55,508 bases of DNA, filler included, from Catajapyx aquilonaris (GCA_000934665.2; 2 parts of 2 records of this genome joined end to end with filler, not necessarily neighbours in it); one strand, 5' to 3'. Numbered from the whole stretch's first letter, positions 181 through 46,958 are shown. Program-made: numbers and translations. Notes: a model not told the origin generated them from the letters alone.

Positions 181-412
181 CCTAGAGGAGGTACTACCTA
201 TCCTTTTCCATTCGACAGGCTGAGGCAGCGGCCATCTTGTTGGAGGTCATATTGTTGTTCTAACAGTTGTCTAGCAACTGGGACAACAACCAATAATGAC
301 AACTGGGCGACAATTAGTTCAATAATGTCAGGCGTCCGCCATCTTGTTGGAGGTCATATTGTTGCCTGCATTGTTGCCTGCCTCACATTTCAGGCCGAGT
401 ACCTCCTCTTGG
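181..412. mobile_element. Small MITE with 15-bp TIRs in a TA-rich site
   Basis: CCTAGAGGAGGTACT (181-195) vs AGTACCTCCTCTTGG (398-412), 14/15 inverted match; internal direct repeat GCCATCTTGTTGGAGGTCATATTGTTG. Confidence 0.65.
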
Positions 413-439
413 TATATATATAATATAGCACAACTCTTT

Positions 440-612
440 GGCAAGGACACACGCGAATCAAAGATGGCGGACCCTATTTTTGCCTGTACCCTATTTATAC
501 CTCGTTGGCGTTGCCCCCACTTCAAAATGGCCGCCAGCCTTGGCAACACCCCAAACAGAGAGATGCGGAAATCGAATGTTAGCGCCTCTTATGTAGTATA
601 TATGCTCCCTAG
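440..612 (-). mobile_element. Solo arm of the 7506-7857 foldback MITE family
   Basis: ~170 bp closely matching the reverse complement of 7506-7675. Confidence 0.85.
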
Positions 613-1070
613 CTGTCACAGTGGACAATGCTCTTTGTTGAAATAAACATTGTCATTGATCGTAAATTGAGCTCCCTCGTCGGTAGGTGTTAAATACCTG
701 AGCGAGCCTGAGGCTAACCGGATGATTTACAATGAGTGGTTTATTGTTGCCTCGAGGCCCCCGTTTATTGTGTGTGGGACCTCCCGACGAGCTACAATAC
801 GGGGGCCACTGTTTGCGAAAAACACACACACAACAAAGACATTTATATGTTTATATCATCATCTTGGCAAAACAATTCACAATCGAATGTCTTCATTTTT
901 TCGCCTTCTGGACTTTTGCATTGTTGTGGGGGAGATGGCTACCATATCATGTCAACAGTGTATTGTCCAGCATTGTCCCCCAGAGGGGGGTCAATCAACC
1001 GGTGGCTAATTACATTCCAATTAATTAACCTGTACAGTACTGTACATTCCGCAATAGTTGGGTAGATGTT

Positions 1071-1195
1071 CACTAGATGGCAGCACCACCCGCACTGTAA
1101 CTTCTAGCGGCCATCTTCTGAACTAGAGGGACAACCAGTGCGCATGCGTCAGTTGGACACCGTGCACGTTCAAACTTGGGCTCAGAGCGCATGCG
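1071..1195 (+). promoter_or_regulatory. Putative housekeeping promoter of BSDC1: CTCF-like site (1071-1086), YY1/PHO-like GCCATCTT (1110-1117), two NRF1/ewg-like GCGCATGCG (1140-1148, 1187-1195)
   Basis: Motifs read directly, clustered 60-190 bp upstream of the ATG; function is inferred. Confidence 0.5.
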
Positions 1196-1256
1196 TATAC
1201 ACTAACTTGTAAGAAGCAGAAAGGAAGAGATCAGTGTCCGAAGAACAACAATCAAA

Positions 1257-26000: not shown

Positions 26001-27725
26001 GCGGTCATGCCAAGTGTATAGAGTGTGTGCGGTATGGCGATGGTGGGTGGGTATGAAACAGCACCATAACTCACAGAGAATGCGGCTTTGCTTGCTTGGC
26101 TTTTCTGACTGGCTTGCCCGCAGCGTCAGGTAGTCTGGCCTGACCAGGTGGGCGGCTTGGACATGACTCGTCCCACACCTTTCTTCTTTCCACCTCCTTC
26201 CTCTTACCTCTGACTCATTCACCAGTTGGTACTTGCTGTGTAAGTCCAAGCTATATACATACACGCAACATTCCTACACCTGGCTGGAGCTCCAACTTCC
26301 CTCTTTCCAGATCTGACCGAGACTCTCACATGACCTTAGAGGAACAATGACATTATTACGAGTCACCCCCCCCTGTCTGATTTCCTATTTTGCTTGCACA
26401 TCCTCACACGACTCGGTGTCCTCCCAACAAAAGCCCGAGTGATGAATGGGGCCCGGTACTTAGTGTCACCCTGGGAAAGGTCCACCTGCATGGGGCACAA
26501 CAACAGGCATGAATGAAGAAGAAGCGACGGCTCATTTGAACTCCCACCCACACCTCAAATATATACGATGGTCGACTGTACAGTTTTGTGCACACCCTGT
26601 AACTGCTGTGCAAATAACGATTGATGAATAGCCCCCCCATCTGGTTGCCCAATTAAGGTGCTAAGTGCAAGAGAAGCTAATCGGACGACACGAAAGGGTA
26701 CTCTGCGGCACGTGTGTGTGTGTCCGTTTCGAGCAAGAGTCGTAAAAAAAGCGTTTTATCCGCGCTACGACTATCTGTGAGTCACTTATTTCCTAATGTG
26801 TCCACGCCCATTAGGAAGGAGCGTACATCAATTATCGCCAGCACACCTCTGGGGCTTCAATTACACGCATTGTCCCACTTACACAGCAGGTTACTGCGCC
26901 TCCGTTTCCAATCATTAGGAACTACACCCGCGATGTCCCCAATCGGTCCAATAAAATCGTGGATAGAAGTGGCTGTGACTCTGTCTGTCCACTGTTAGAA
27001 GCTTGGTACTACGTCCACTGGCGTGAATTATACTAAACAGTAATTTTAATTTTCCAGCTCTGTACGGACCTTCCTGTCCGACCGGATGTAGTGCCTGCAG
27101 TGCAGTGAACGGATGCGTGTCCTGCAAGGCTCCGTTGCTCCTGCAGTTGCATCGGACAGGCCCTCGACAGATAGGGTTGTGTCGGTCCACGTGTCCGGAC
27201 GGATTCTTCGCAGGAAGGGTCGGAAAGCCGTACTCCTTCTGCGCCAGTAAGTCGCGGATACAGCTTACGACACTTCCATCTTCGGACCTGTTTAACGTAC
27301 GATGTGTTTCAGAGTGTCGTCTGGAGCACTGCGAGATATGCTCGGGCAAGAACGTGTGTGTGCGATGCTCCAGACCTTACGTGGAGCATCGCGGAAAGTG
27401 TGTCCCGCCATGTCCGGCCCTCAACCTAGTGGACGCCAATGTGACGGACGGGGATTGCGTCTCTCCTCCAGGCCACCACACCAGACGTCGCCACTACAAG
27501 CCTGGTACGTCAAATGGGGCCCCTATATCTTGTATAACAATAATCTAAAGAATCGTGCGTGCGCAGGTGCGTGCCAGGTGAGCCAATGGTCTCCGTGGAG
27601 CTCGTGCAAGCCTCTCAGGAGGCCTGCCTGTAGAGGCATCCAGACCAGGCAGAGGGAGATACTGCTGGCGACATCTGGATCCGACGATGTCTGTCCTCCG
27701 ACCAATCAGACGCGACCGTGCAGGC
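10975..27725 (+). CDS. RSPO: R-spondin homolog (signal peptide-FU1-FU2-TSP1), 3' partial; join(10975..11092,27058..27246,27313..27504,27567..>27725)
   Basis: FU1 CPTGCSACSAVNGCVSCKAPLLLQLHRTGPRQIGLCRSTCPDGFF, FU2 KCRLEHCEICSGKNVCVRC..YVEHRGKCVPPCP and TSP1 CQVSQWSPWSSC..CRGIQTRQREIL match the R-spondin domain order and Cys spacing. All three introns are phase 1 GT-AG, one domain per exon as in vertebrate RSPO genes. Confidence 0.88.
14355..14637. mobile_element. Three adjacent mini-MITEs with CACTCTAAGAAATGTCCGGGTTAAAT TIRs and TA flanks
   Basis: Copies at 14355-14444, 14451-14509 and 14519-14637, each ending TTAGAGTG|TA. Confidence 0.8.
19251..19406. mobile_element. Short MITE (Harbinger-like ends)
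   Basis: Perfect 22-bp inverted repeat TAAGAACGCAACCGAGTGCGCA at 19259-19280 / 19376-19397. Confidence 0.7.
23991..24606 (+). mobile_element. Helentron/HINE-like non-autonomous element with internal 96-bp tandem array
   Basis: TGAGCGAAGCGAG(G/T)G motif at both ends; 3' hairpin ACCCTC..GAGGGT followed by CTATAGTT; ~3.4 units of 96 bp; related copies at 8.6-9.3 kb. Confidence 0.65.
24169..24500. repeat. 96-bp minisatellite, ~3.4 copies
   Basis: Unit CCCCGTTCTGCGCCTGCGCAATGG..GCGCCTCTGG..CTGATTGG..ATATTGTTACC..CTGATTGG; appears as a 32-aa repeat in ORF 23919..24581. Confidence 0.9.
25409..25730. mobile_element. Degenerate element with many short CACTC/GAGTG subterminal repeats (CACTA-like remnant)
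   Basis: Repeated cactcaa/gagtg words in both orientations; A-run and T-run inverted ends. Confidence 0.35.
27058..27246 (+). CDS. RSPO: R-spondin exon 2, furin-like domain 1
   Basis: tttccag| acceptor, |gtaagt donor, 189 nt, 8 Cys, SxxNGC and RxxxRQxGxC motifs. Confidence 0.92.
27313..27504 (+). CDS. RSPO: R-spondin exon 3, furin-like domain 2 plus basic linker
   Basis: gtttcag| acceptor, |gtacgt donor, 192 nt; KCRLEHCEIC aligns to RSPO1 KCKIEHCEAC; NVT glycosylation sequon at the position of RSPO1 NGT. Confidence 0.9.
27567..27725 (+). CDS. RSPO: R-spondin exon 4, thrombospondin type-1 domain (truncated by gap)
   Basis: gcgcag| acceptor; WSPWSSC and QTRQR motifs; runs into Ns at 27726. 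Confidence 0.88.
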
Positions 27726-27825
27726 NNNNNNNNNNNNNNNNNNNNNNNNNNNNNNNNNNNNNNNNNNNNTTAATTAATTAANNNNNNNNNNNNNNNNNNN
27801 NNNNNNNNNNNNNNNNNNNNNNNNN
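27726..27825. other. Assembly spacer: 44 N + TTAATTAATTAA + 44 N
   Basis: Exactly 100 bp; the palindromic 12-mer gives stops in all six frames. Confidence 0.95.
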
Positions 27826-28340: not shown

Positions 28341-28495
28341 CTGCTGGTATGGCGAGGAGGACGTGGCAACGACATCCTCCTTGAGCGTTGGGGTCTCTCG
28401 AAACACGACTGCCCGGATTACCCCTTGGATGTGGTCCTCAGGCCAAGATCCTAGCAGGATGCGTTGAGGTCTCCCCCTGCCCTTCGGCCGCAAAT
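28341..28495 (-). CDS. bab: bab module C exon 2: AT-hook region
   Basis: tctag| acceptor; DLRPKGRGRPQRILLGSWPEDHIQGVIRAVVFR; candidate donor CAG|gttagc at 28341, otherwise reads to the stop at 28170. Confidence 0.88.
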
Positions 28496-31400
28496 CTAGA
28501 AGAGAATTTTTGGCTCTCTTTGGTGCCTGGTCCCCTGCCTTTTCTCTTTTTTACTCTCATCTCTCACTCATGTGGGGAGCTAGCAGAGTGGGGGTCAAGA
28601 GAGTGGTTGGGGTGAAGTAGTAGAGAAGAGGAGACTGACCTGCAACTAAGGTTGCATGTCAGACATTTTTGGAATTACCAATTTCGGGACAGATGACGAG
28701 CTACTGTTGGAAGACGGAGTTGACTCCCTGCATATGTTCGAGTTAGCCAATCATCTCAGATCAGTGCTTGCTCTTTGCAACTTCGGACCTCATAATGTAG
28801 TACAGGTAATGTTACTTTGTTACTACTACTTATTGATGCAAATTGGCTGGTCCTTCAAGGCTTCCGTTGAGTCCTGTAGATCATTCATACAGCTTTCTAA
28901 CTCAAGTGCCTGCTTTGGAAAGCAATTATTTGGTGCTTCGCCGTTGAACAATAATTCCCAAATTTATTCATATGGACTACCTACAATTACATAAACAAAA
29001 CAATCCATCAGAATAGTGCCCTTTGAAAGCCATCAACCAAGTTCATTGCTGACAATCTAATAACACTTCTAATATTTCTTAATACGTAACTGCTTAATAA
29101 GCAGCTTATTGCCAAAAAAATTACTAACTGAAGCGAACACTCAATTGAAATTGGAACAGCATACAAGCAAATCCAAATTTAAGAATGACATGTCTCCCCC
29201 ATCTCCCTGCAGACCCTAATAATTACCTGTGCTAACAAGTCTGAACTAATAGAAGCATATTGCTTATCAAGTATTCACATTTGTTTAACTATTCTGTATG
29301 GCGGGTGGTGAAATGCTTATGACTACAAGTAGGACCTACAATCTGTCAGAGGTATGTAGCAGACTTACCAATCAGCTCTAAAACAGCTAGTCTTCAGCCT
29401 ACTCTAGCACAGTAGCACAAAACTTGTAACTGTCCAAGTGGAAGTCAGCACTGTCACAACTTGAGCTCGCCACCTGTCACCCATGTCAACATATCACAGG
29501 GAAGGCCAATTTCATCAGTCAATTCATCTGCTTAGTAAGGAAGGTAGAGGGTGGGGTAGTGCTGGTGACTCGAGGATCATGAACTGACCTGCTGCTCCAT
29601 CGCTGGATGGTCCCAGCATGTTGTGAACCCTGTTGGCGTACAGCACAAAGGTTGGGTAGGGGATGTCGTACTTCCTGGCTGCCTGCGAGAGGGACAGTCC
29701 CTCCTTCAGCACTGCATGTATGGCTTCTGCCATCGTCTCTGGCCTCCATGACTTCAGTGGTCCTCTTTCTCTGAACCGCATGCTGTGCAGCAGTCCTGGT
29801 GGGTTTCCTGCATTGGCACTCCAGCACTTCTGCCACATGCTCTGCAGCTGGTACTGGTAGCTGTCCACTGCTTGGCATGAAGGGGGGGGGGATAGATACA
29901 TCTCTACCTTTCTTTCCCATTTTTCACCCATCTCTTCCAACTACCCCCAACACTAACACTCAACCCTTTTGCCATACTGGAGTTGGTGAACACCTCAAAG
30001 TTTCCAGGCCTGGCACCCGGCTCAACAAGTTTTAAATAATTGATTGCAAGGCCCCTGGTAATAAATATGCATAGCCTTAATGCGCTTTGTATGGCAGTGA
30101 AGCTGTGCTTGAATTCTGCACAGGCATTGTTGTACAGAAGGGGAAGCAAATTTTGCTCCAGGACATTGTTGGACATTAAAACTGCTATCCATGATTAAAA
30201 TAATGCCCCATCAAAATTTTGCCTCACTGAATACTGTACTTCAAAATCTTCATCTCTTGAAAAGACTAATTTTGAAACCAAATTAGATTTCTCTCCTTCT
30301 CCACCATTATGTACAAACACAAATTGACTGCAAAGTGCTGTTGTTAACCAAACACTTTCTGCACCCATCCTGAATATTTACTCCCCCCAAGTCCTCACAG
30401 GATGCAAGTTGCCTCTTGGAAGTCATGTTTCCACTACAAAATGTTGAAAAGAGGGGCAAGTGTTTTGCGAGGTCCCTTGTCCATAAAAACTCCCTGGCGA
30501 GAATGAGCCGATGTGAGAGGAAAGAGGGTGGACATTTTGGGCCGCACGTGCATCAAATGGGGAGCCCCCCCATGATATGAAAAGATATGTGGGAATGTGG
30601 TGGGCTTGTTGGGAGGAAGGGGGAGGTGCTGCAGGGTGGGTGGGGTATATGGTAGTAGTGGGGTGGACGGGAGACAGACGGGTTGGCAGGCGTGGTCCAG
30701 GGCCTAATTCGATTTTTCGCCCGGCTCGGGCTGTCAAATCCTAACTCAATTTGGGGCATGCACTTGGGCGCCCAGGGAGCTGCAATGAGCCCGGGAAAAA
30801 CCAGAGCCCAAGCCTCCCTCTTTTCCACGCTCCCTCCCCTCACATCCATCTACTTTCCCACCAACTCCAAATGGACATACACATATGTTAGTACAGTACA
30901 TCACCCCCTCCTCCTCCTCCCTTCCCTCTTCCCACGTAACCGCTCCCCACCCGCCCTCCCAAAACTTCCCCACACTGAACAGACCCCAAGCGAGCTATCT
31001 CCATAAAAACAATATTCTGAGCTCGACTCTCATATGCCTTTCCGCTTATGGTCAGAATGGAATTTGCATCCATCTACGTACATTCTGAGAATCACTCAAC
31101 GGGCCCGTCACTAGAGGATCACTCTGCAAGTGTCAATACTGCTGGGCTCAACCGCATTCAGGACATGACAATAACACTGGCAATCTGAAATCGCGGGGAC
31201 TTACAGGCCCCCTGTGCGATCTGCGCATTTTATCGCGGGTGTTGTAACCCCGAGCAATCCGGGTCCAGTCCATTAGCATGGAGAAAAAAGTCTACGTAAT
31301 GTCGGGCCGTAATTAACAGGAGTTCATGCTTAAACTTTCCAGTCCGGTCAGAATGACACTGCTAAATGAAGACACCTCCCAATCCCCCCCCCCCTCGACC

Positions 31401-34400
31401 GCGGCATTACGCCCGACGCACCGATTGTCTGCGAAAAGTAGGATCACTCTCATTATGAGGAGTGCCAGTATGGGGCATGTGGCTATTGCTGCTTGGAATC
31501 AAGTTGCGAATATATTGCTTTGGTGGGCTATAGGCCAGGACTACAGCTAAGGCAAAACATTTTCTGAGTTTCGATTATCCGCGAATGAGGTTTGGCTGTA
31601 GTGATAATAAGTCGTGCGTAAGCAATTATTCTCTTAAATGGCCTCCATATCGGGAGAATCGACTCGGAAGTACGCACAATTACAGTAAAATGTTGGCGTT
31701 TTATTAATTATGGATAATAATCAACCGACTCATGCACAAATGCAGTGTACTTAGTAATGTCAGCAATGATTTTCTAACCAAAGCTTAGGAAATTTCCTGT
31801 TGAATGAACGTATGGCACATGACGGCCCCTAACAACATGGCCATTCAAAAATGAAGAATTCTATTGTTGTTTGCCTTCATCTCCGCATTATCTTCCTACA
31901 ACGCTCCATACATACAAGTTTTATTGCAGAACAATGACCACCTTCTTACAACGAGTGGCCTTAAGCATATACCAAGCTACCTAGATGGAAATTGCTTCTC
32001 ATCACACCAAGCTTGAGAAATGCGCTGCGGCCCGAAAGTACCTTTCCATTGGACCAGACCATATCATCTCCCGAAGAATTAGCGAGTCAATGAACTCTAT
32101 AATCTGCAATCTTCTCGAACTCGTGCTCTCTTCTCCTATCTCCCCGACAATCTCCGGCTGGCTGAGGCCGAGAGACGTAGGAGGTTAATATTTGTCTGTG
32201 GTCACCTTCGAAAATCGAACCTTAAAACCGGTTGAGATTGCCCTGCCGACTCAAACGAAACGCTGCCATGTTTGCCCAGCCAAGTCTCAACACCTGATGC
32301 TTAAATTAACCTGCCCTTGTGGTTAAGACCCTCTCCGAGCTTAATTACGAAATGTGCGCCAAAAGCAGCCATGTCCTGACATATTCAGCGTGTGCAGTCT
32401 AAAAATTTTATAAGAACATCTGTACTGCCTTACATCTAAATAGTCTGTCATTATTACGGATTGTACTTTTTTTCCCTGGCTTCAGAAAACTGATCACCTT
32501 TCACATGCTGTAAACTAACCTTCATTCTGACTACGAGTCAAGCTTGGAATCCATGAAGTAGGCCTAGAACACCTTTCATCCTGCCCTGTCCTCATTCTTG
32601 CCTCGTAAATATTGCTCTCAACTGCGTCATGGAATGTGAAAGACATTTATTTTCAACTCAGACTTACAATAAAGTTAACCATCATATATATAACCCAACA
32701 TGGAAGACTCTGTCACAACAACTTCAATAAGGTGGAAAACATGTGACAACTCTGAGCCCAAACTGAAATAAAAAACAGTCTGTCAAGACATATCGCTCCA
32801 TACAAAAATAGCCTGCAGTAATACATTAGTTGTATGGATGTTGAAATTTCAGTATAGGAGTTACTGTATATTATGCGCTTTATATACAAACGTCCGTGAA
32901 GACTTTATGTTATAGGGACAATATGTTCTGATCACGTAAATTAGCTCTTATTATGCTGTCAAACAAGAAATAAAAATAGCCACGATCAATGTCAATAGTT
33001 CACGTAAGTGTCACACACCGAAAGGAAAAACACTACGTTGGCCTATTACAATAACAATAAACAGTTTTACGTATCAAAAAAGGGCTCCAGTCTAAAAATT
33101 TGCACACTAACGGAATGCCAGCCTTTGTCAATGGGAACATAATTAAGTAGAAATTGCTTCCTCCTAACAAACATCCTAACTGACGGACCCATGTCCACTG
33201 TCAGTTTCAAATATAGTCACACTGTGTAACAAAGAGAGAAAAAAAAATGGTGGAATGTTCACGAGTTCGTCCGTCACCATACAACACCACAACGTTGCCC
33301 TTGAGAGTGTTTGCCCTGAGGTGTAACCCCAATGAAAAAGCCAGCGGGTCAGTTTCCACAGCCTATGTCACTACAAATACTCGCTAACTCATTTAGATAC
33401 TATTAACCCGTCTTGATTCCCGGAGACTTCGTCCGCATTAACATTTCAGTTTGGGCACAATACGTATCTGATTAATCGATATCAAATAAAACCCCTTATA
33501 ACTCAGAAACGACGTTGCATGAAATAAGCATGAAGTCCCAAATACACCGGACCAATTGCGAAACCTAAACTATCACATGACCTAAAAAAAAATTACTCCG
33601 GTGAATATTTCAGAAGCGCAGATAGTTTTCAGATAAATGCATAACTCATCAGAGCGGTCATAATTATTGCATGGGCGAGGCGAAGCAAGATTTTATCTCA
33701 GTTTCCCAATATCGCCTTCCCCTCAGCCAGAGTAACAATTTTACAGGAGGCAGAAGTTTTGTAATATTCCCCTGGATCGCGTTTCCTAAAAACTGGAGCT
33801 TATTACATTCATAATATCCGTCAAAAGTCGGCGGATTCCAGGTTTACTCGTATTATCAATGACTACGCTGCTGGGTTGGGGCAATCTTTTGGACTGGTAC
33901 ACTTCAGCCCGGGAAATAATAATAAGAGAGAGAAAGAGAGAGAAAATCAGACGTTGATAAATTTTTAAGTACAGGTGTGAGTGCAGTCCGTAATTCATGA
34001 CAACAAACTCGGTGCGTTCCAAGTCAATGCGCAGGCACCGCATACACTATTAATGCAGCTGTACATAAGACCCCCATAAATCATTCGCGACCTATTTTCT
34101 GACCATTGAGCCGCGCCAGTTCGAATAAAAAGAAAACGGCAGGCATGTTCATGTGCGTCTGCAATAAAAAAAAACAGCAGAGGTCAACCGATATGACGAT
34201 CAGATCGTGTACCATGCCTGCCTGAAAAGCGATGCTGTGGAAACATGACCACACTTCTGGAAATCGCGCGTAGGAGGGAAAAAAGAAGAGTGGACCATTT
34301 CTCCGTTGGCGTGTACAAGGATAGGAAAGAGAGGGTCATCACACACATAAAAAGATGCAGCGTGCAGAAAATATAAGCTTTTTTATATATAAAAAAGTAA

Positions 34401-37400
34401 GGGACTCTAGTAGGGCGGCTCCCTTTTCAAGGTAGGTGAGTTGTTGTAGTAGAGGGAGATGATCGTATGCTTCTTGCAGAAGGCCCACCACCATCTGAAT
34501 CCCCTCAGGCTGCCGAATTTAAACTTCGGCAAGCGCCGCTGCAACAGGCCTTCTACGAAGTTCAGCACCTCCAGCAACGACTTGTTGGTTCGTCGATTGT
34601 AAGGCATGACGGCGGTGTCGCAACAAAAGTCCAACACCGCTTCCTCCTCCTCTTGTAGCATGCTTATCTCGTCCAAGACAAGCATCCGTTTCGATTTGCC
34701 CAGGATGTTGTCGTAAAGAGTGCCTTTTGGGATGCCATAGTGGCTCGCGGCTTGGGTGAATCTCATTCGTTGGGACACCACCGCAGCCATTGCTTCCTGG
34801 AGCTGATCCTGACTCCAGGTCGGAGCCTTGACCTTCCACTGCCCACTTCCGGAGCCCATGACGCTGGCTGGGCCGTCTACCGCGTCAGAAAAGGCAGGAA
34901 AGGACCAGGGGAGGAACAAAAATAATCAACTAAGCAAAAAATAAATAAACGAACAAAAAAGTAGCCTGTGGTGTGGAACGGAGGGAATTCGCAACCAAAC
35001 AGCAAATGATTTTTTTTTTAAACGCGTGCAAAGACATGGCAACCAAAAATCTACGCGTAGCATTAGTAAATAAATATTAATCACAAAATAAATTAACTGC
35101 ATATACAGACCACCATGCATTTTATATAATCACTACAGTCATGTACCACAGGAAGAACGGAGGCTGTAACGTCCAACTGTCTATTAGGGAGACACAGAAG
35201 GCCAGCGCGACATACAGTACGTCCGGGGGAGTCAAAAAATGTGAACTTTTTAAAACATTTGCAAAAAACGGTAGTGAAGCCGTGTCACACCGATGAGTTA
35301 CTCGAGGCTTATCAGAGGATCGTCAGTAAATACCGGTATGATCACGAGTGATTGAAGTTTCCCTCTTTATATTTTAGCGCTATAGATGAGCAGCACTTGG
35401 AGTGGCTCGGTCGGGTGAGGATATATGCTGGGTAAAGGTGGACTATGAGCTGGATGGATGAGTAAATGGGTAGGACTACAAGGCGATTGAACAAACACGT
35501 TTCTAAAGATCGGCAGGGGACAAGAGCAGAGCAATCAATTCCGCCGCCTGATTACCTTCGGAGACACGTTGAGTTTACAAGCGTAAGATACACCAAAACT
35601 TGGGCACGACGAAGGTTGGATTAGAGTTTTAAACACAGTACATAAAACAATTGATCAGACCCAAAGCACAGTTAGTCAATGACACTGAACAGCGAACAAA
35701 AAATGCTCCCCATACGCCGGAGCCGCATTACGAGAGTGAGTCTTACAAATGTCACGAAATATTTTATTTAAAACACACCGGGGGTCTATCAAGCAAGACA
35801 AAACCTCACGCTTATTTTCAAAGCAAATAGATACTGCTCATCGATTCATTTCACTACCGACTTTACCGTCCCAGATCATTTCTCGTCACCTACACCACCC
35901 TAACTGAATGGGGAAACTTCAACCATTCGCACGCCAAATCCCTGAGGATACTCGAGCAACGCCTCCGTCAATGTTCAGTGCAAAACGTGCAACTTTTGTT
36001 AAATCTCTCTTGTTTAGCTCAGTGTGGTCAGTCCTGGCGAACTGTAGCACCAAAAGTGTTTGGCGACATCGCTTATTCCCACACAGGCTCTGTCTTTATG
36101 TACAGCCTCAACGGATCTTGCTCCTGTTGCTGCTGCTGTTGAGGTTGCTGCTGCTGGCCATGCCGTGAGGACGTCCCTTGCAACGGATCCGTCCTCAACT
36201 GTTCCATGGCACTCTGCACTTGCGCCGCCCCCCTCCCCCCGGCCCCTTGCCCCCCGGCCCCCCTCCTGCCCCCGCACGACACCTTGCTGCTGACCAACCC
36301 AAGGGCCCGCGTCCGCCTCCACAAGGTCATGACCGGGATGCGACACTTCTCCGCGGCAGGTTTGATCGGACTGCCTCTCTGGACCAACTGGATGGCCTCC
36401 AGGAGGTCCCGCTGGGTCCACTTGGAGTGGGCGCTCTTCGACACCAGGAGGGCCTTCGGGAGCTGGGACGGGGCTGGAGCCAGGGGAGGAACTGGAGGAG
36501 GTGCTGGGGGCGAGGCCGGAGCCGGAGGTGCTGGGGAATGAAGTGGGGAGACATTCCAGGACGCGCCCTCTGAAACGAAGCCCAGGAGCATTTTTTTGTT
36601 GTCGTTTTTTTTTTCCTTTGCGGCTTATAGACCCAACAAAACAAGCAGAAAATCGTCGAACGATTTTCTACCCATCAACATTTCGAGTGAAGGGAACTTC
36701 TGGAGCACTCGCCCTATTGCTGGTACCCTGTTACATTTCGCTCCAGTTCATCCCAAATGGCCCGATCTTCGTGCCGGCGTTATACAGTAAAAAAAAAAAG
36801 GAGAAAGGAATGGCCCATGTCCACGGTGGACAGGAATTTTAAAGGCGGCCACCAAATTACCCAGCAAATCGAACCAATGTGCTCCTGGGCTTCATTCTAC
36901 TCACTCCAAGGTACCCATTAAATATTCCTACGGTTAAGAAGTGCGCATTGTCTTTGCATTTCCGTGGGTTTCCCCGTCGGGTAAGCCCGCGACTTTGTCC
37001 CCCGTCCAAATTCCCTTCGTTCACACTTCCCGAGGTACACAGATTAAAGAAGAACAAAAAATTGCAGAAAAAAGTTGAGACATTGGACAATAAACACACA
37101 CAGGAATATAAATAATAAATGGTGTTATTTTGAGTACTTATATTTTTTTTGCGGAAAGAGATGGTTAAAAAGGGTGAGTCAAACCGTGGCTCAAGTGAGA
37201 AATGTTCCACTGGCTTCAATGTTTCCCCCCATTGATGCTTTACGTCTTTGATTTGAAAATTTCCACCTGGCCAGTTCCTTCCAGAGGCTCCCTCCACTGG
37301 AAATTTCCCCCACCGCCCTTTAAAATCCCTGTCCACCCCCAACCAACAACCCTCACAAAAACACCAAATCTCACCTTTCCGAAGTACAGTCCATGCTCCG

Positions 37401-40400
37401 CCTTTAGCCGGCCGTGTGGCCAGACCGAGAAGCCACCTTATTTACTCTCCTACATATAAAATGCACTTAACACCAAACGTCCTTGCCTAAATTAATATTA
37501 ATGATCTTGACCTTTGCTCCTTCGCGTTCGGTCGAGCCAAAACTACGATTCTTGCTAGTTGAGGGTGTGGTGGCTTGCCGGTCAAAACGTGCGGATCTCC
37601 GTTAAAAAATATAGAGGACGAGAGATTCTGCGGTGGGGAAGCATGGACGGAGAAAACCCACCTTACCTGTTCTCCTTTACAAAATGAATGAATGAACTAA
37701 TGAATAAGTTATTATACAGAGTCAAGGCGCAACTGCGGTCTAACCTTCTCCGGATAAGAATTCAGACCAAAAGCTAAACCGATTTCTTAAAAAATATCTG
37801 GTCTCAGCTATGGTGGTCTAGAAACGCAACTACCCTTCCTCCGAAATTATATGTTTTACGCGTATTATCGATCGGCTGAAATTTTGAGCGCAATATTTAT
37901 TGTAAAAACACAGTCCTTTCTCGCCAAAAAAACATATCGCCCGGGAATTGCAAACAGATGTCGTGCGACTGTTGTTTACATTATGGTTCTACCGTAAATA
38001 AGCAACCTTCCATAAGGGACAGGAACAAATTGGCCCTGTCAAAATAAACCTACCCTGCTTCTCGTACATATCCTTAAAAAACATTTCTGAAGCGATTGCC
38101 CATGTCTTTGGCCCATTCTTGGGCAGCAGCAGAACTCTTCCTTTCACAGTAGTTGCGAGAATGTTTACAGCCTCCCCTTACCAACCCCCCCCCCCCCGCN
38201 CCCCCCGACTCAAAAACACAGCCGCTTGATATCACATTAACGCGGGCGTTGACCCTTCCACCACCGCAAGGCACGTATTCATCTCTTTGGTCAAACCCTT
38301 GCTTTGGATACGTGTCAAAAATGTGGACTTACCAGTGATGGGCGACACCGACGCTCCGAGCCATCCATGGGAAGTCTCCAGCATTTTAGCCTGCGAAAAA
38401 CCAGAAACCAGATATACAAGGATGCCACTTTATTTCGGGCGCCGTCTTTCCACTTTTATGAGCGCACTCCCCTTCTGTAAACTCGCACGTGTGGGCAGCA
38501 TACCCCCTCCACTTTGGCTTACTTCTGGAGCACACACCCCCAACAAGTCATGAGAGGGTTATTCAAAATGGCCGCCATTTTGGCATTCCCTTTTCCCCCC
38601 ATATGTGCAACTTTTTTGACAACTGATGGGAGCAAGCAAGATGGTCTGCGCACTGCTATAGTGAGTGCGTGCACATTGAGAGGGGGTGGAGAGAGCTACA
38701 GGAACATGTGATGAGGGTGTAGTGTAGTGGGGGTATGTGCAGGGGGGGGGGGGGTCCGAAATTGGGTGCATGGGAGTGTGGTGGGGGAAGAGGGCGATCA
38801 ATGCCCTTCCTCACTGCCGACCAACATAACCTGGCACTCGGTCTGCTAACACGCAGCCCTAATTGAAACTAATCAACTGGGGAGCAGGCACATGCCCGCC
38901 ATCTTGTCCCAGCGCAATTCCGCCAATACGACACCCGATAAATCCGGATTTTTATTATGTTTTTCAGGGAGGAAGAGGGAACGTGGGGGGAAATGCAAAT
39001 TTTCATAAATATTTCCATCATCGCTGCAGGTGCCGTCTCCAGCAGCTTCCTGACAACTGGTGACCCGAGTGACACGAACAGGCTCATAATCAGTTATCAC
39101 AAAATAGATCACTGCATTTGAAAAAGGCACAAAAAATTCAAGAGGAACTGGACAATGGCAAAGCTTATGCAGGCCAGAATTAACACAAAGCAATAAGCCG
39201 ATTTTTCCCCCCTTCCAAAAGTGAACTAGGGTAGAATTTCTACGCTCGCTGCGGCGAACTTCACGCGTTGATTGGCAACTCTCATACATGCCAGCAATAA
39301 AACTATTCCTTTTATTGCCTAATGTGGTCGTGGCATTTATCACTGCGCGAGTTTTATGGAAGCGAAATCAGTTCAAGAACAAAAATATAATTGCCAAACG
39401 TAAAACTACAGGCCCAAGTGTTCTGAATAACCCAATATGTAGGTACATAATTCAAGTGCTCGTACACCCTGCGTACAGCAAATAAACAATGCAATGACTG
39501 ACATTTAAATTCAGTCTTGTCACACTTCTCCCAACCGTCCTCACCTACACACCCAGGAGTAAGTCGCTCCCCATGTACAGTACGCGCACTTCCACCCATT
39601 CTGCATAAAAAACCTAGTTCGGATTGAAAGAGACAGGGGCACCTTTTTATTTATTTTCCTTTTTTTTTCATCCCTTGAACAGCAAGTGTCGTTGACATGG
39701 AGACAAAACCACTCGAGTCGTGGGCAAGCGAAGAGGAGGGGACATAGGTGGTGGTGGTGAGGATGGGAAATTATTCACGTGTGGGAGTGTGTGTGTGCAT
39801 GTGTGTGGATTCTCTCCCTCCACGCCCCCCACTACCACACACTCCATTTCGGACAGTGCTTATTTATTCAGTGTGCCCTGCCTCCGACTAGACTCCCTTT
39901 AACCTCAACCATTCCCCTTTTGGAATTCATTTCATCACTTTCTATGCCTCCAGGCCCACCTCCTATTGCCGTCCACACTTTGTTCTGGATTCGGACAATT
40001 TTTCCGTGTCGCTATACCTTTCAGGACCAGTTCCCCACAACTTTTGTCTCTGCAATTCGGGTCGAACTACACTACCATATAACAGGTATCATATTATTCT
40101 CCGCCCCTCCGCAGTTAGAAAGTTTCATACTTTTCCACCCAGGTCGCAATGAAAAGAATTACGTAATTAGGATGCAGCAGCAATTTCCTCTCTGAATTTG
40201 AAATTAGTGCAAACTTTAATACCATCAATAATATTGACTATTAATAACGTTGTCCTAACTTCCGTACATTATGTGCAGAACTAATAACGAGATCAGAATA
40301 ATGTGGAAAGCCGCACGAACACACTTCTCCTATCATATACCTCCGAAACGAATTTTCCGGCGACATAATCCCATTGTAAATAAAGTACCGGTACATGACG

Positions 40401-43400
40401 TCACCAGAGTCTGCTGAGTAGACTAAGGTCAGACAGCTTTGCAACAGCACTCGTAGCTCTCAACCATGACAACACATTTCCTCATTCTCCTTCCTCTCTG
40501 CTAAAAACTGTGAAAGTTGTGCCATTTTCATCCAAATATGAACCCCTCAAGAAGCATGTCATAAAAGTCATATTTTGGCTCGCCTCTCATATAATGAACA
40601 CAAAAAACACATACAGGAACATAAGTTGACCATCCTGACATTGTGTCATACATGGCATGCAAAAGTGTCCTTGACTCTCAAGTCAAGTTTGGTGAGCAGG
40701 ACAGTTTGCCACTGTTCCATTTATCATATCAAGTGTCACCCTCTTTGCAAGGAGGAAGTGGCCTTAAAATTCTCATTCTCATGATAATTATCATTCTCTA
40801 AGTATCACTGTAATAAAAGTGTACCACTGATGTAAAATAGTCTGCAAATCCAAGTACACTTGGCAGCAGTGACTATGATAACGCATTGGATTCCGAACCA
40901 ATAGGCAAGCAGTAACCTGTAAAGTTGTTTCCTATTCACAGCTGCAGGCTGCCCTGATGCATTTGGCTAATCCAGTAGTAGTGGCCTCACACCATAACGT
41001 GCAAAGACATCATGTGAGAAACTGAGAACAAAGTGACTACAGAGAGGGTCCCTACACAGAGTTTAGATATGTGCCGCCAGAATATTGTGCACACTTCTGA
41101 CTCAATTTGATACCCATGCTCGAGACTCTTTCAGACTTAATGTGTGGCACAGGAAGTCATCTTGCCTTTCAGTCAGAGAGCTAACTTAATTCTGGAATAT
41201 GCAGAAGACTGCTACCAAAGTGAAACTGAACAGACTCTAGGGACATCCTCTATATGCCACTTCAAATCACACATATAAAGCACATATATCACATTCAATA
41301 TGCTGAAGTTTTTGTTTCATATGGAGCACAAAGCAAATCCTGATATTCCTCACATAGAGCCCCTTTAACGCTACTATGCAACATTATTCTGCATCACATT
41401 GCCTATAATTCACAAGTTCCCAGGAGTTTTTACAAGATTCATCCCCCATATCCTCATGGAATCCCACCATTTATGTCATGTCATTTGTTGGGGCAGGATG
41501 GTTTGTTTCACTATCTGCCACTTAAGTCTCCATATAATATCTTGTGGATGGTAACATACATCAGTGTCAAAACTCCTGTGACCCTGAGTGAAACATAATG
41601 TACACTTTTTCTCTCCAGTACAACAAAGTCGAGAGTGCATTACAGAAAAATATGGCACTGACCCTTTCTTCTTCCCGTATCATCTCTACAATTCCAGGCT
41701 TCAACTCCAAGTCGGATGGCTGTGGTGGGGCCTGCAGTGGAGGAGGCTGTCCCCCTGTTTGTGCAGGACCACCACCTCCCCGCTCTGCTGCCCCTTGGTG
41801 ATGAGGCCCATTTGGGGGTGGGTTTTGGCCCTGGGCAGGCTGTCCCTGAGACGTGCTGCCCCTGCTCTGGTCCACTCCAGAGGTTGCACAATTGGAGGTC
41901 GGAGTGGGGTGGGGAGGAGGTGGAGGCTGAGGAGACAGAGGGCAGATTGGTGGGGCCAGAGGCTGGGGAGGTGGTGAGTCAGATGGCGGTGAGGCAGATG
42001 AGGAGGAAGGGACACCTTGGGGCATGCCACCCATTGAGGTCACTACTCCCAAGCCTACACTCAGCTCAGCCTCCACCAGGTCAACAGGGGCGGTGGGAGG
42101 ACTGTCTGGCGGGCTGCCTCCCCCACAGCCTTCTTCCGAGGCCCTCCTTCGTCGCTTTCGTCCTGGTGGAGATGGGGTCGAGGAGCAGGCAAAGGACGGG
42201 GCCTGCTGCTGGCCCAATGATGATGACGATGATGCTGACACCAAGGCTGAACCCTAAGATGACAGGTTGGGGAATGTGATTCAACACATATCACCTCAGC
42301 AGTCAAATTAGTTTTACCAATGGCATGCACAGTATGATCCCAGACGTATACAATGATGATAATGTGCCTAGGCCCTAGGCCATGTACAGGCTGGTGTAAT
42401 TTAATATCCTTGGAAAGCACTGAAACCTTTCAATCCAGTGAGATGTCACTTTACAGTTTACACTATCTTATTAGATCATGTTCAATGACTTGTGCAGCTG
42501 CAGCTGATATGCAAGTGTCCATAACTCTTCACAACTCATCAAGTAGCACAGACTTTTATGAAGCCTACTGTATCAAATTCTTGTTGAAAATCTTTCAAGG
42601 AAGTCATGATCTGGACAAGTGCAACCATGTTAAGGTGGGCCCAGATGCAAAACAACTTATGTTTTACAACTCAATTACATCTGCATTGTTGTGATCACTG
42701 CTTACTACAATGCCTCCCCTTGCCTGGTCACATATGTCCAACACCACAGATGCTCCTAAATTATGGACTTGAGAACCCAAATTTGACCTCCCCCTTATCC
42801 TTATCCCAAGATACAATATATTCTACTGCCTTCTGGCAACCAATCATTTTTCTTCCAGAATAGCAACTACACCCTATCCAATACACATAATAAGCATAGA
42901 GTATACCTACCATTGTCAATCAGTGGCAGAATATCAGTAAGTTGCTACCTTTAACAATATAGGCATAATATCTGGTCCTGTTATTTACTATTATTAGTAC
43001 AGGATTGCATGCAAGCATGCCAATGTTCCCCATATATTTTACTGATCAGAATTTAGAAGTCTTCAAGATATGCCCATTTGATTACAAATCCATACTTCCG
43101 TTGTAAATAGGTTTTCTCTTCTGACATTATGAAACAAAATGACTACCCATACTATGGAATCATGACTTAACATGATTATTCCTATAGATTAGAACATGCT
43201 CAGTATCATGCACCTCACATCATTACAATGATATATAATCTCATAAGCAGACTTTATGCATTATTCTAATAAAAATCCCTCTCCATTATGAAGATTTGTT
43301 TCCTGCTATCAGAATATACAAAATGTGGCTAATTATATAATAGAGGTGATCCTTTCCTACATCCATAAAATATGGCACTAACTGCACCAGGTGTATAGTG

Positions 43401-46400
43401 TATTTCCGTAATGTACTTTCAAGCTCGAATCTCTATTCCAAGCAATTCACAGTTCCAAGTGAGAAAAATAATATAAAATTCACAGACACTGTCAATAGTT
43501 GGTGTGAGCAAAATTATGTAATACAGGGCTGAAAAGCTGCGTTACTTTTCATACTAAAATACTGCAGAGCTTCTGTTGAAACAGCAATCACAAAAAATCC
43601 CACTAATGTCAACAGACATCCGTACCACATTATCAAATGTGCAAACTATGTCCACGCAGTCACACTGCTTGAAAGGTTAATCAAAGAGAGCCCTCCACCT
43701 TTTCCCAGAATCCTTGCATTTCCATGCAATCCTGCTGGAGAGTTAATTACATGCCAGGGCAAATGTTTTGCATTAATTTGGACTTTCGCCCTTTGGCAAC
43801 TGAATCTCCCCATCAAAAGCAATTTTTTTTTCCTGACCCCCCACCATCCCCTCTAACCATCCCACCCCTCGCCACCTACAGTCCCCCCCTCCCCCTCTTG
43901 CTTTCTCAAAGGACCTCAATTGCTCATGCATGTGAAAATGGCAACACTGCTGGGATCTGGTCACCTGGCTTGCTATTATTTAAACTGCACCGGTGACCAC
44001 CATAAAATATGCAAATTAATGTCCAGTTACAACACACATGGCCAATGTGAACCCCATGATTTATTCATCCAGGTTACTTTACATTCTTATTGTGACGCTT
44101 CCGCTGTTTTAGTTTGTTTACTCTTTAATTGTGCGCCATTCCAGGGTAGCGCCTGAGGAATTATAGCAGGGACCCGACATAACAGAAACCCTGGGATAAA
44201 AAAATGACACATACTCGCACAAATGCTAAAATTGCTGGGAGAATGAATTCAGGACCAGATTTCCAGCTCAGTGTATGACATAGTGTGGATCCCAAATGTC
44301 CCACAAGCATCAAATTGCCCTGTTACAGATGACAACTGCTTTTTACCTAACCATATTATAAATGCTGTATTTATGATTTCATGCAGTAAAAATATCAAGC
44401 ATTTCTTTTCTTACACTTACACTTTGCTGTCACTAAACCTCTGCTGTTACAGATTGTTCGCACCCTTTGGTATCCTTTTGGTTACACACGCAATGAACAA
44501 TTTATAAAAATGATCCTAGCTCACATAATTCAAGTGTCCAACTTGTCAATGTGAATAAAGAGTACCGGCAAGTCCATTTAGTATTTTTAAATCACAATAA
44601 GTGTGATCATATTTTTTTCTTTCACAAAAGGTGACAACCAAATGTTGCACATAATTCAAATAGATTTACATTGCCATATCAATGTGCCATTTCATATTTT
44701 ATATAACTCAATCTAAAAGTACAGGAAATCCCAAATTGCAGGAAACCACACTAGAAACTTCACCTGTAAACAGAGCCACCCAGAGAAGCTATGTACTATC
44801 ATATTCCTATCAAGTTGTAGTACAACTGAAAAAATTCAGGGGAACCATATGTGACAACCTAACTTGGACATCCTGAAACTAGCCAAACTAAACAAGACAT
44901 ATGCCCCATATAGTGCATCCTACTCAACAATAATGTACAACTGCATGTTTTCAAAAAAGAAAACTGGTATTGCCTTAGTTATGGAAATCTTGACTGTCAC
45001 AGTAACTTTTACATTTAAGTGTATAATGTTTTGTGTGCCCCACATGTATAACCTCTGAACAAATCTTGACTAGTGGCCAGCATTGCAGCAAGGTCAATGA
45101 GAAGGAAAAACATTACTTTGAGTCAAATAAATCGACAACAAGTTAATTCCTAAATGCACTCCCCAAAGAAGCCAAAAAACACACACCAAGAGAAGTACAC
45201 TGATCTGCACTTACTATTTGCGTAGAATGATCATCGAGGAAGCATGCTGCTGGTATGATGGGCATGACCCCGTTGGTGCTGTTGCATGGGGCATGGTTGG
45301 GAGAGGTGGAAGATGGGACCGGGGAGGAGGAAGATGCAGGCTGGCCCTGGGATGACTGAGCCACTGTCTGCAGAGAAGGTGGGGCTACCAGGGTCTGCCC
45401 TACCCCGCTGGTGGATGGAGGAGGATGCTGTTGGATGGGGTTCCCACCGATGCCCACATCTGCCAGGCCTCGGATCTTGAGGGCCTCAGCTACCTTCAAG
45501 AGGGGGCCCAGCTGTTCCTGGGACACTGAGATCTCCCCCTTGTACACGAACTCGAGAACAGACTTCAGCTCTGACCATCCCACATCACGCAGGATCACAA
45601 TTGGATGCTGGCATGGGGTCTCTGTGAAGAGGGCCTGGCCAAAGAGAAGGGGAGATCCCTGGTTAATGTGTCCTTCTGGTTCTGGAACCTAACTATGCAT
45701 TTGATTCAGCTCAAGAGCATTCTACAGTATCCATGAGAAGTCATGTATTCTCATCTTTGAAAGCTGTAATAATATGAACCCTGTGGTTTTCAATAATCGG
45801 GCAGACAATTTAGTCCACAATTGCATCTATGATACATTATCAAAGAGCTATGAGAATGTTATCTTCTACCAAAACCAATGCGTAATGCAACACACCTCTC
45901 TTAACTGAATAAACTCGTGTTGTGACGGACATTACAAACCCCGCAATCCTAACTTCACAATATTACACATCATGTCTTTACACATTTTCCCACACCAATA
46001 TTGTATTACAGAACACAAATGTTGTAAAAACAACTTTAAAAACGGCAATGAAATGGCCCCAGAAAAACCATAATCCCAGAAATCTAATTAATATACTTTG
46101 TGAAATAATTGAGTTGCTCTTTGTAGTTATGATGCACCCCAATTTGATTTTCCTCTCTTGCTTTTGACAATGACAGTTTCATGACCGATGTGGTGAGCAT
46201 ATTAACAGATGCTCTAAAACTATTACTCATATGTTCAACCCTGCCGTTACCTGTGATTGCATCTGGGCCTAGGCCCATACTGGGTTTACCTTCCAATTTG
46301 CAAATATTCAGCACAAGCCATTTCTGCCCCTACCAACCTAACTTTTGGTACAATAATGTAATTTGCCATTCATAATATTAATATGAATGTAGAAGTTTGA

Positions 46401-46958
46401 AGCATTTACATGCACATTTGGCTAAAATTTACCGGGGAACTAGCTAACACATCATAATTCTGCCACTTAAATTAGTTCACAGCTAAATATTAAATATTAA
46501 ATGCTAAGTTCAGAATCATAAAAAATTATGCATCAGTATGCAAATGCATTACCATATTCAGAACGATGGCATCCATATTCAGCATGCCACGCATTGTGGA
46601 TACCGCTGCAGTTGCTTCCATTACATTTAAATCTAGCCAAAAATTTTAAAACAGCTCGCAAAGAAAGCTTACAAGTCACATGGCAGTTAAAAAAAATCGA
46701 GTAGCAATTACGACTTCAACGCCAGAATGCCACCCGAATGGGCGGTAAAAAAGAAAAAAAAAATCGAAGTCCGGATTCACTAACCTGGAAATAGGGGCTG
46801 CATGCGGCCAGAATGACCCGATGGGCCTTGACGGCGTGACCCTCACAGGCCAGGGTCACGTCCACCAGGGCTTCGTTCTGAAGCAGCTGGTCCAGCACCG
46901 TGGCCAGGTTGTTCTGGTAGTTGTTCCAGCGCAAGCAGTATTGCTGCTGCGCCGACAT
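28341..46958 (-). CDS. bab: bric-a-brac BTB/POZ-pipsqueak transcription factor, canonical BabCD isoform; complement join(46785..46958,45215..45634,41663..42253,38333..38390,29589..29867,28341..28495), 3' end uncertain
   Basis: Tramtrack-group BTB QQYCLRWNNYQNNL; bab linker KPGIVEMIREEERAKMLE; DSYQYQLQSMWQKCW; BabCD psq RERGPLKSWRPETMAEAI..YDIPYPTFVLYANRVHNMLGP; AT-hook RPKGRGRPQRILLG. All junctions GT-AG and in frame. Confidence 0.92.
29589..29867 (-). CDS. bab: bab module C exon 1: BabCD psq domain
   Basis: Phase-1 acceptor aagcag|, phase-1 donor |gtcagt, 279 nt; close match to the recalled Drosophila BabCD. Confidence 0.93.
34407..34876 (-). CDS. bab: bab alternative terminal exon B: psq HTH plus second, CENP-B-like HTH (isoform ~570 aa)
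   Basis: Long polypyrimidine tract and phase-1 acceptor gcggtag|; WSQDQLQEAMAAVVSQRMRFTQAASHYGIPKGTLYD then EEEEAVLDFC...GFRWWWAFCKKH; stop at 34407. Confidence 0.85.
36073..36569 (-). CDS. bab: bab alternative terminal exon A: single pipsqueak-type HTH, Gly/Arg and polyQ tail (isoform ~579 aa)
   Basis: Phase-1 acceptor gtttcag|; KWTQRDLLEAIQLVQRGSPIKPAAEKCRIPVMTLWRR fits HTH_psq; stop at 36073; minus-strand AATAAA at 35763-35768. Confidence 0.8.
38333..38390 (-). CDS. bab: bab coding exon 4, 58-nt last common exon (AKMLETSHGWLGASVSPIT)
   Basis: tttttcgcag| acceptor and |gtaagt donor; continues the conserved EEER-AKM motif and converts phase 0 to phase 1. Absent from the ORF track. Confidence 0.88.
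41663..42253 (-). CDS. bab: bab coding exon 3, Pro/Ser-rich linker with NLS-like RKRRRR
   Basis: atcttag| acceptor; ends DLELKPGIVEMIREEER|gtcagt; 591 nt, phase 0/0. Confidence 0.88.
45215..45634 (-). CDS. bab: bab coding exon 2, BTB C-terminal half
   Basis: ALFTETPCQHPIVILRDV..FVYKGEISV..LLKVAEALKIRGL; ggccag| acceptor, |gtaagt donor, 420 nt. Confidence 0.9.
46785..46958 (-). CDS. bab: bab coding exon 1, BTB N-terminal half
   Basis: MSAQQQYCLRWNN...AACSPYFQ|gttagt. An acceptor lies 9 nt upstream of the ATG (exon starts 46967), so a 5'UTR intron precedes it. Confidence 0.93.

Follow-up and report, generated by a model that had tools for sequence, protein, structure and literature searches.

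The bric-a-brac (bab) genes are familiar from evolutionary developmental biology, in which they figure in sexually dimorphic pigmentation, leg and antenna segmentation, and the ovary niches of flies, in the ultraviolet iridescence of Colias, and in the male pheromone preference of Ostrinia. A locus of Catajapyx aquilonaris raises the question of whether such a gene joins its BTB domain to one DNA-binding domain or to several. It lies on the minus strand of a stretch of DNA of 55,508 nucleotides (nt), filler included, which is made up of two parts of two records of the genome (GCA_000934665.2) joined end to end and is called the window here. With high confidence, we assign this minus-strand gene to the arthropod bab orthologues and ascribe to it one BTB and at least two, probably three, alternative DNA-binding tail exons, denoted A, B, and C from 5' to 3' along the gene. 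The choice between B and C is seen directly in spliced contigs, and A is likely, judging from relatives, to be spliced to the BTB in this organism as well.

The splicing evidence comes from the Logan contigs of X1, the sole public run that holds the stretch (share 0.32), for which the library type is not on record; the joints and loose ends considered are those listed for the run, beyond which there are 20 pieces and 3 loose ends. Three of the joints connect the common exons E1 to E4 with one another (45633 to 46784, 42252 to 45214, and 38389 to 41662, cut +1), and a fourth connects C to its continuation C2 (28495 to 29589). The two remaining joints lead from the last common exon, E4, to different tails, i.e., 34876 to 38333 for B and 29867 to 38333 for C, with 30 letters in E4 in both cases and depths of 9.35 and 56.9, respectively, although contig depths in X1 cannot rank parts of a gene. 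All six joints read CT..AC on the plus strand, which corresponds to GT..AG on the strand of the gene, and because of these six joints we take the X1 contigs to represent processed transcripts. Since the contigs join 38333 directly to 34876 and to 29867, B and C are real alternative 3' ends: two mutually exclusive ends, each with a DNA-binding module of its own, depart from one common donor. The contig that carries E1 to E3 enters E4 by 57 letters and then stops at the end of E4, which is the pattern that a de Bruijn assembly would yield at a branch common to alternative downstream exons.

A preliminary description of the locus, made from the sequence alone, had proposed that a last common exon at 38333-38390 ends in phase 1 and is followed by three acceptors (36569, 34876, and 29867) that open three different psq-type helix-turn-helix (HTH) frames, of which A and B end in stops with a downstream AATAAA. 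The coordinates proved exact, the phase agrees with the splice sites as read directly, each acceptor opens an HTH frame once the carried G is added, and both stops are followed by the AATAAA motif at the distances given in Table 1. Phase-1-compatible AGs in the open stretch before the HTH number 5 of 12 for A, 2 of 7 for B, and 8 of 24 for C; phase fit alone is weak, and the observation rises above chance because of the spliced contigs of B and C and the junctions conserved in other arthropods. The description had further placed three mutually exclusive 3' ends on one BTB, which holds for B and C, on the strength of the X1 joints and of isoform pairs in other species, whereas a joint from 38333 to 36569, which would tie A to the common exon, is absent among the joints listed. 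This absence is no evidence against the A junction, because contigs drop rare forms.

Table 1. Position and content of the exons and candidate polyadenylation signals of the bab locus in the window; a slash marks the exon border.
Feature	Position	Strand	Content	Splice sites
E1	46785-46967	-	Short 5' untranslated piece, ATG 46958, MSAQQQYCLRWNNYQ...SPYFQ, first half of TTK-type BTB	acceptor gtgacag/GCT; donor TTCCAG/gttagt
E2	45215-45634	-	Second half of BTB and start of linker; Pfam BTB E 6.6e-8	acceptor ggccag/GCC; donor CAAATA/gtaagt
E3	41663-42253	-	Low-complexity linker with KRRRR; 3' end ...LKPGIVEMIREEER	
E4	38333-38390	-	Last common exon, 58 nt, AKMLETSHGWLGASVSPIT plus one carried G; phase 0 to phase 1; isoform branch point	acceptor tttttcgcag/GCT; donor CACTG/gtaagt
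Terminal exon A (coding)	36073-36569	-	164 residues and stop (taa 36073-36075); psq-like three-helix HTH (SKWTQRDLLEAIQLVQRGSPIKPAAEKCRIPVMTLWRRTRALG), then poly-Q and IKTEP	acceptor cgtttcag/AG at 36569
AATAAA	35763-35768	-	Motif scan; 305 nt 3' of A stop; candidate poly(A) signal	
Terminal exon B (coding)	34407-34876	-	155 residues and stop (tag 34407-34409, upstream of C); HTH_psq, then second helical subdomain ending GFRWWWAFCKKH	acceptor gcggtag/AC at 34876
AATAAA	32646-32651	-	Motif scan; about 1.75 kilobases (kb) 3' of B stop; candidate end of a long B 3' untranslated region	
Exon C	29589-29867	-	Canonical psq part of BabCD (VDSYQYQLQSMWQKCW...KSWRPETMAEAIHAVLKEGLSLSQAARKYDIPYPTFVLYANRVHNMLGPS)	acceptor caagcag/TG at 29867
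Exon C2	28341-28495	-	AT-hook part of BabCD (DLRPKGRGRPQRILLGSWPEDHIQGVIRAVVFRE...), RPKGRGRPQR	donor at 28341

The assignment of the gene to bab, which the preliminary description had also made, was borne out. Both hallmarks of a bab orthologue are present, a TTK-type BTB and a BabCD in which a psq HTH is followed by an AT-hook, and both parts show identity to insect bab. E1 matches Pfam BTB at E 5.1e-12 on the open reading frame (ORF) 46719-46970, and in tblastn it is 69-76% identical to insect and shrimp bab. The motif FxLRWN, reported for TTK-type BTBs (PMC11426971), reads YCLRWN here, with Y replacing F, and the IxEMIREEER motif of E3 is common to insect and shrimp bab. An equivalent of E4 (AKLLE.SH.WLGAS...) stands before A, B, or C in other arthropods. 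Every acceptor in the model combines a pyrimidine-rich tract with AG and every donor starts with GT, i.e., all are canonical. Since E1 opens at an acceptor and its contig has 56 extra letters, at least one 5' untranslated exon and the promoter must lie further upstream; these letters, upstream of the E1 acceptor (46967-46970, minus strand), do not fit the stretch with which they were compared. Among the 118 minus-strand ORFs of at least 45 residues in 25784-47595, there is a single BTB, split over two exons, and Pfam finds no further DNA-binding module and no transposase family.

The three tails are, by sequence, three divergent HTH modules, of which C is the canonical psq and AT-hook BabCD. 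A and C are 32% identical over 34 residues and B and C 37% over 49, and no meaningful alignment is obtained between A and B. The earlier wording of three psq-type HTHs is correct for B (Pfam HTH_psq, PF05225, E 2.4e-8, 34 bits against a cut-off of 20.4) and for C (HTH_psq, E 2.5e-16), whereas A falls below the threshold and shows a likeness only. Across 92 residues, exon C has 82.6% identity with Tribolium bab1 X4, and the identity of C2 with insect bab is 73-78%.

For A, the likeness to psq consists of the three-helix fold, phmmer matches to multi-psq proteins, and the name HTH psq-type that the source gives to its relatives; in addition, the nearest Atlas clusters, which are taken as a lead only, are 90-99% HTH_psq (score 0.87-0.88). 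AlphaFold places helices at residues 52-63, 68-74, and 79-88, with a predicted local distance difference test (pLDDT) of about 92, and the fold is confident only at residues 50-90. In the representative library, A has 44 relatives at E≤0.001 (27 at E≤1e-10 and 0 at E≤1e-30), which are 55-72% identical over the HTH, with a core of about 55 residues, SKWTQ.DL..A..LV..G.PIKPAAE.C.IPVMTLWRRTRALG, and those that bear names are decapods and krill. Exon A itself lies under X1 contigs (bin 35812-36462, depth 8.4), and a further contig (35247-35608) is located downstream of its AATAAA. Near the end of exon A lies a poly-Q run written in CAG and CAA (36100-36160, minus strand), at which the X1 contigs show the replacement of 8 letters, one non-canonical joint, and one loose end. 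The joint runs from 30256 to 36124 (TT..TC, side 21); like the loose end, at 36119, it falls in this stretch, and both were treated as repeat assembly effects. The anomalies as a whole probably reflect repeat-length variation or an effect of the assembly.

Of 481 candidates, 143 are related to B at E≤0.001, with identity of up to 73%, and X1 contigs (33287-33695 and 32811-33247) lie between the B stop and the AATAAA at 32651. Its structural model (pLDDT 83.7, from a 29-sequence alignment) consists of two helical subdomains, the first with helices at 22-33, 39-46, and 50-58 and the second with helices at 65-70, 74-84, 100-112, and 122-135. In VIA-align, the first subdomain resembles LCoR, Tc3, and Hin-type HTHs and IstA, with middling Z scores of about 5 for Tc3 transposase and IstA, and the second (65-135) resembles residues 70-131 of CENP-B(1-129) (1hlv), again with a middling Z of 5.0 and a root-mean-square deviation (rmsd) of 3.3 over 59 residues. 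This arrangement, a psq HTH at 22-58 and then a helical subdomain at 65-135, recalls the bipartite domain of CENP-B and pogo, in which a psq-like HTH is followed by a second HTH. However, it is a likeness and not membership: the Z scores are middling, no Foldseek match to the fold of B was found in the PDB at E≤0.001, a profile search of PDB sequences returned only LCoR (E 0.017), and Pfam HTH_Tnp_Tc5 and CENP-B_N have no match on B. A CENP-B-like bipartite domain in B is thus a lead only.

The same junction recurs in other arthropods. Nine same-species pairs of a B-type and a C-type protein were compared, and five of them (Planococcus, Tribolium twice, Macrosteles, and Leptopilina) are letter-identical up to ...WLGASTSSIA, after which they continue as ...LKLK.PTWTQ in the B type or DSYQYQLQSMWQKCW in the C type. 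The insect B models are built as BTB, IAEMIREEER, AKLLE.SHAWLGASTSSIA, and the B module. The preliminary description had suspected that B-like isoforms already exist among automated annotations, and they do, in many insects: models named protein bric-a-brac 1-like isoform X3-X5 (Danaus, Aricia, Planococcus, Macrosteles, Leptopilina, and Diachasmimorpha) and Tribolium TC031038 all read BTB, REEER, AK.LE..H.W, and B. Their names can be misleading or empty, as in NHS-like protein 1, unc-89-like, lola isoforms H/M/V-like, and uncharacterized, and no automated model among those compared carries all three tails on one gene.

For A, the corresponding evidence comes from crustaceans. The Penaeus isoforms X6-X9 read BTB, REEER, AKLLESSHHW, and A, with the same junction residue as here; isoform X9 of Penaeus vannamei, for instance, runs ...IAEMIREEER-AKLLESSHHWMGTSMAD-GGGPVF... 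and later reaches the A HTH. Macrobrachium P0183 joins BTB, common exon, and A, as does P0182, an 845-residue ORF on a 3023-nt contig that is counted as cDNA-like because it is too short for introns. Krill and crab models open at MAKLLESSHHW, which is the common exon, and of the 120 proteins listed for a search with the shrimp N-terminus (lengths 496-1581), all those from shrimps are of the A type. In the malacostracan proteins P0131, P0170, P0182, P0183, and P0184, an extra RRRDAPDM or RRRELPDM stands between ...REEER and AKLLE..., and some Penaeus models read through VRILGWSPPLPFRPDN...; these sequences suggest that, in Malacostraca, a micro-exon and forms with a retained intron occur immediately ahead of the common exon.

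A and B also occur side by side outside Catajapyx. Five near-identical metagenome contigs (L001-L005), which are insect-like and counted as one taxon, contain A at 71-74% identity and, about 170 nt past the stop of A, B at 64% identity (E 1e-62). The A exon of L001 opens ttatttcag/AG, with the Glu codon split as G/AG exactly as in the window and 52 residues before the invariant Trp, compared with 51 in the window; the B acceptor is tttcttag/AT, reading DCPALLKLKAPTWTQ, which is the insect junction sequence, and the B module is 86% identical to that of the cricket model Gryllus GBIM_06042. Within 2590-2760 of L001, the approximately 170 nt from the A stop to the B acceptor contain no AATAAA that was seen, and an A mRNA of this type may continue across B and finish at the same 3' end. 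The cricket model has the A HTH and then B, and B followed by C is found in single models of Heterotrigona (a bee), Ceutorhynchus (a weevil), and Sergentomyia (a sandfly); the order A-B-C is pieced together, since A to B and B to C come from several separate lineages. By these sequence comparisons, the A-B-C array is old. A further metagenome sequence, L006, holds an intronless 367-residue ORF (247-1350, plus strand) that combines a TTK-type BTB with an AT-hook-like KRKRGRPRRR and ends in an A-like HTH (...IRPAAIKNNIPVMTLWRYAKKLG); this HTH is 47% identical to A, so that the A-type HTH family has another BTB partner.

In mosquitoes, the arrangement differs. In the other four pairs (Wyeomyia, Sabethes, Topomyia, and Malaya), no identical block of at least 15 residues exists between the B-type and the bab1-like proteins, and the B-type proteins (P0047, P0062, P0068, P0078, and P0079, compared with P0191, P0285, P0216, and P0205) have a divergent BTB of their own and lack the REEER/common-exon motif. 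Because this motif is missing, B in mosquitoes is most likely a gene of its own. B- and C-type proteins of three Phlebotomus species keep the common N-terminus and the same junction, and within Diptera B looks like an isoform that has turned into a separate gene. No brachyceran name appears among the 120 listed of the 143 B matches, no search dedicated to B in Drosophila having been made.

We propose that, at the Catajapyx locus, one promoter and four common exons would supply a multimerising TTK-type BTB, a linker, and a short exon ending in phase 1, the donor of which, at 38333, would choose among the acceptors 36569, 34876, and 29867. Splicing to 29867 would yield the classical Bab protein, with psq HTH, AT-hook, and further exons; splicing to 34876 would yield a shorter protein that ends in B, with a different psq HTH and a second helical subdomain; and splicing to 36569 would yield a protein that ends in A, with a third, psq-like HTH. 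Each mRNA would carry one tail, because A and B carry their own stops and sit in the intron that is removed for C. The isoforms may read different DNA sequences and, by analogy with the hexamer-forming, heteromultimerising behaviour reported for TTK-type BTBs (PMC11426971), they may co-assemble in mixed multimers through the BTB.

Several observations weigh against a single BTB shared by three tails. X1 is not on record as RNA, which by itself says nothing on expression, and E1 to E4 lie on one contig while 30 nt of E4 lie with C and C2 on another; the junction contigs of B and C cover only those 30 letters of E4, and neither the BTB and the BabCD nor the BTB and B are found together on any single contig. 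Beyond C2, the C isoform continues outside the window, its next exon being known from a 5953-nt contig with no match in it, and, with regard to DNA recognition, only the sequence divergence of the HTHs was measured. A has no Pfam HTH_psq match even at E≤10, and its best match, HTH_23 (E 0.0012), reaches 21.1 bits against a cut-off of 24.6. Moreover, one contig fits the window as far as 36807, 238 nt upstream of the A acceptor, before continuing with at least 255 unlike letters, and the bin 36463-37113 has a depth of 2.84; an exon opening at 36569 therefore leaves part of the cover of the A region unexplained. Such cover would fit an arrangement in which only B and C are joined to the BTB here and A belongs to a BTB-less transcript started in the intron, or to retained-intron RNA, with an ORF from the in-frame ATG at 36591 (MLLGFVSEGASW...), ahead of the A acceptor. 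The flanking intron bins (37114-37764 and 38416-41019) show no cover, and several A relatives are likewise short ORFs of 100-176 residues, although short contigs may have cut them. We nevertheless regard this arrangement as unlikely. The decapod models and the cDNA-like contig link the common exon straight to A, the krill and crab models open with that exon, and acceptor, split Glu codon, and HTH spacing are all kept in L001. The contig end at 36807 is not a splice site, because the two bases before it are not AG, and the unlike letters that follow are not what a transcription start would leave; it may instead stem from RNA that had not been spliced, from sequence variation among individuals, or from a join made in the assembly. 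The consensus strings of the loose ends at 36807, 28341, and 36119 have 0 matches each in the window (≤3 mismatches), and the sequence upstream of the 36807 break and the next exon of the C isoform are consequently placed outside it.

The mosquito pairs raise the further possibility that the bab intron harbours A and B as nested, independent genes, each with BTB exons of its own, as the B type of mosquitoes appears to be. For Catajapyx this is very improbable: the minus-strand ORFs hold one BTB, and the joint from 34876 to 38333 ties B to the common exon of bab, which contradicts such an origin for B. Least probable of all is that A and B are remnants of pogo- or Tc-type transposons with coincidentally open frames. 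Psq-type HTHs do occur in the DNA-binding domains of transposases, and the first subdomain of B aligns to those of Tc3 and IstA; but the ORFs nearby match no transposase or DDE family, many of the 143 relatives of B are BTB-fused bab isoforms with up to 73% identity, the order and the acceptors of A and B are kept in other arthropods, and B is spliced to bab here. The preliminary description had named multi-copy transposons as a condition that would undo its reading, and the modules, which are kept at the bab loci of other arthropods, are not transposon debris. One BTB with alternative tails, observed for B and C and likely for A, thus remains the preferred reading.

The surroundings of C bear on how far the locus can be followed. 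C2 is not the last exon, since it has a donor at 28341, where X1 also has a loose end. Two gaps of 44 N (27726-27769 and 27782-27825) are located about 0.5 kb downstream of C2, and because of these gaps and of the missing next C exon the scaffold is possibly mis-joined or incomplete there. About 0.6 kb past C2, and separated from it by the two gaps, a piece of an R-spondin-like gene occupies 27027-27781 on the plus strand (Furin-like_2, E 1.4e-19; a spondin-type TSP1 at E 5e-7 is below the cut-off).

The layout is of a known kind. Bonchuk et al. 2024 (PMC11426971) report many TTK-type BTB factors with isoforms that differ in the DNA-binding domain, lola and mod(mdg4) being the extremes, and a Penaeus fru-like gene is reported to have mutually exclusive zinc-finger exons (PMC8858584). 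As at the locus described here, lola, mod(mdg4), fruitless, broad, and tramtrack combine common 5' BTB exons with exclusive 3' exons that carry their own DNA-binding module and stop. However, the exchanged modules are C2H2 zinc fingers or FLYWCH domains in those genes and HTHs in the bab locus, which has three of them compared with 20-30 in lola and mod(mdg4); trans-splicing, which is reported for these two, is not needed for the bab layout. Drosophila bab1 and bab2 and the singleton bab genes of insects and crustaceans share with the Catajapyx gene the TTK-type BTB, the IxEMIREEER linker end, and the psq and AT-hook BabCD, but in the latter that BTB is spliced in addition to B, a tail other than the BabCD, and probably to a third, A.

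The accessible papers on bab deal with a single type of protein, BTB with BabCD. Bab orthologues have been defined by BTB and BabCD alone (Bourbon et al. 2022, PMC8959175), and neither isoform nor alternative appears as a word in the accessible main text of that paper. The available text of the Ostrinia paper describes five bab exons, which hold BTB, psq, and AT-hook, with a rare exon 1.5 as the sole addition, and that of the Colias paper contains the phrase bab isoform 0 times. No description of alternative DNA-binding tails of bab was found in the literature, subscription journals and supplements lying outside the search, and to the extent of this search the layout, although of the lola, fru, and broad kind, is without precedent in print for bab.

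Taken with the distribution of the tails, the locus leads us to favour, by a modest degree, an ancestral pancrustacean bab that was a small lola-like locus, in which one BTB was followed by ordered A-B-C HTH tails with DNA specificities of their own, and which met different fates in different lineages. All three tails would be kept in Catajapyx, and elsewhere the array would be kept at least in part, with A and B in crickets, B and C in beetles, bugs, wasps, moths, and sandflies, and A in shrimps. In mosquitoes B would have become a gene of its own, and in the higher flies, on which most functional work on bab has been done, C is the one tail described. The bab tails would offer a clean case for how alternative isoforms become separate genes, as with the mosquito B, or vanish.

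The finding has practical weight for work on bab outside the higher flies. If the locus makes other BTB tails there, knock-outs or RNA interference aimed at the common exons would remove every isoform together, antibodies to the common parts, and chromatin immunoprecipitation with them, would mix isoform targets, and orthology tables that require the BabCD would miss half of the output of the locus. The isoforms are open to isoform-specific testing, and if the ancestral array is true, much of the function of bab outside Drosophila may come from isoforms that nobody has assayed.

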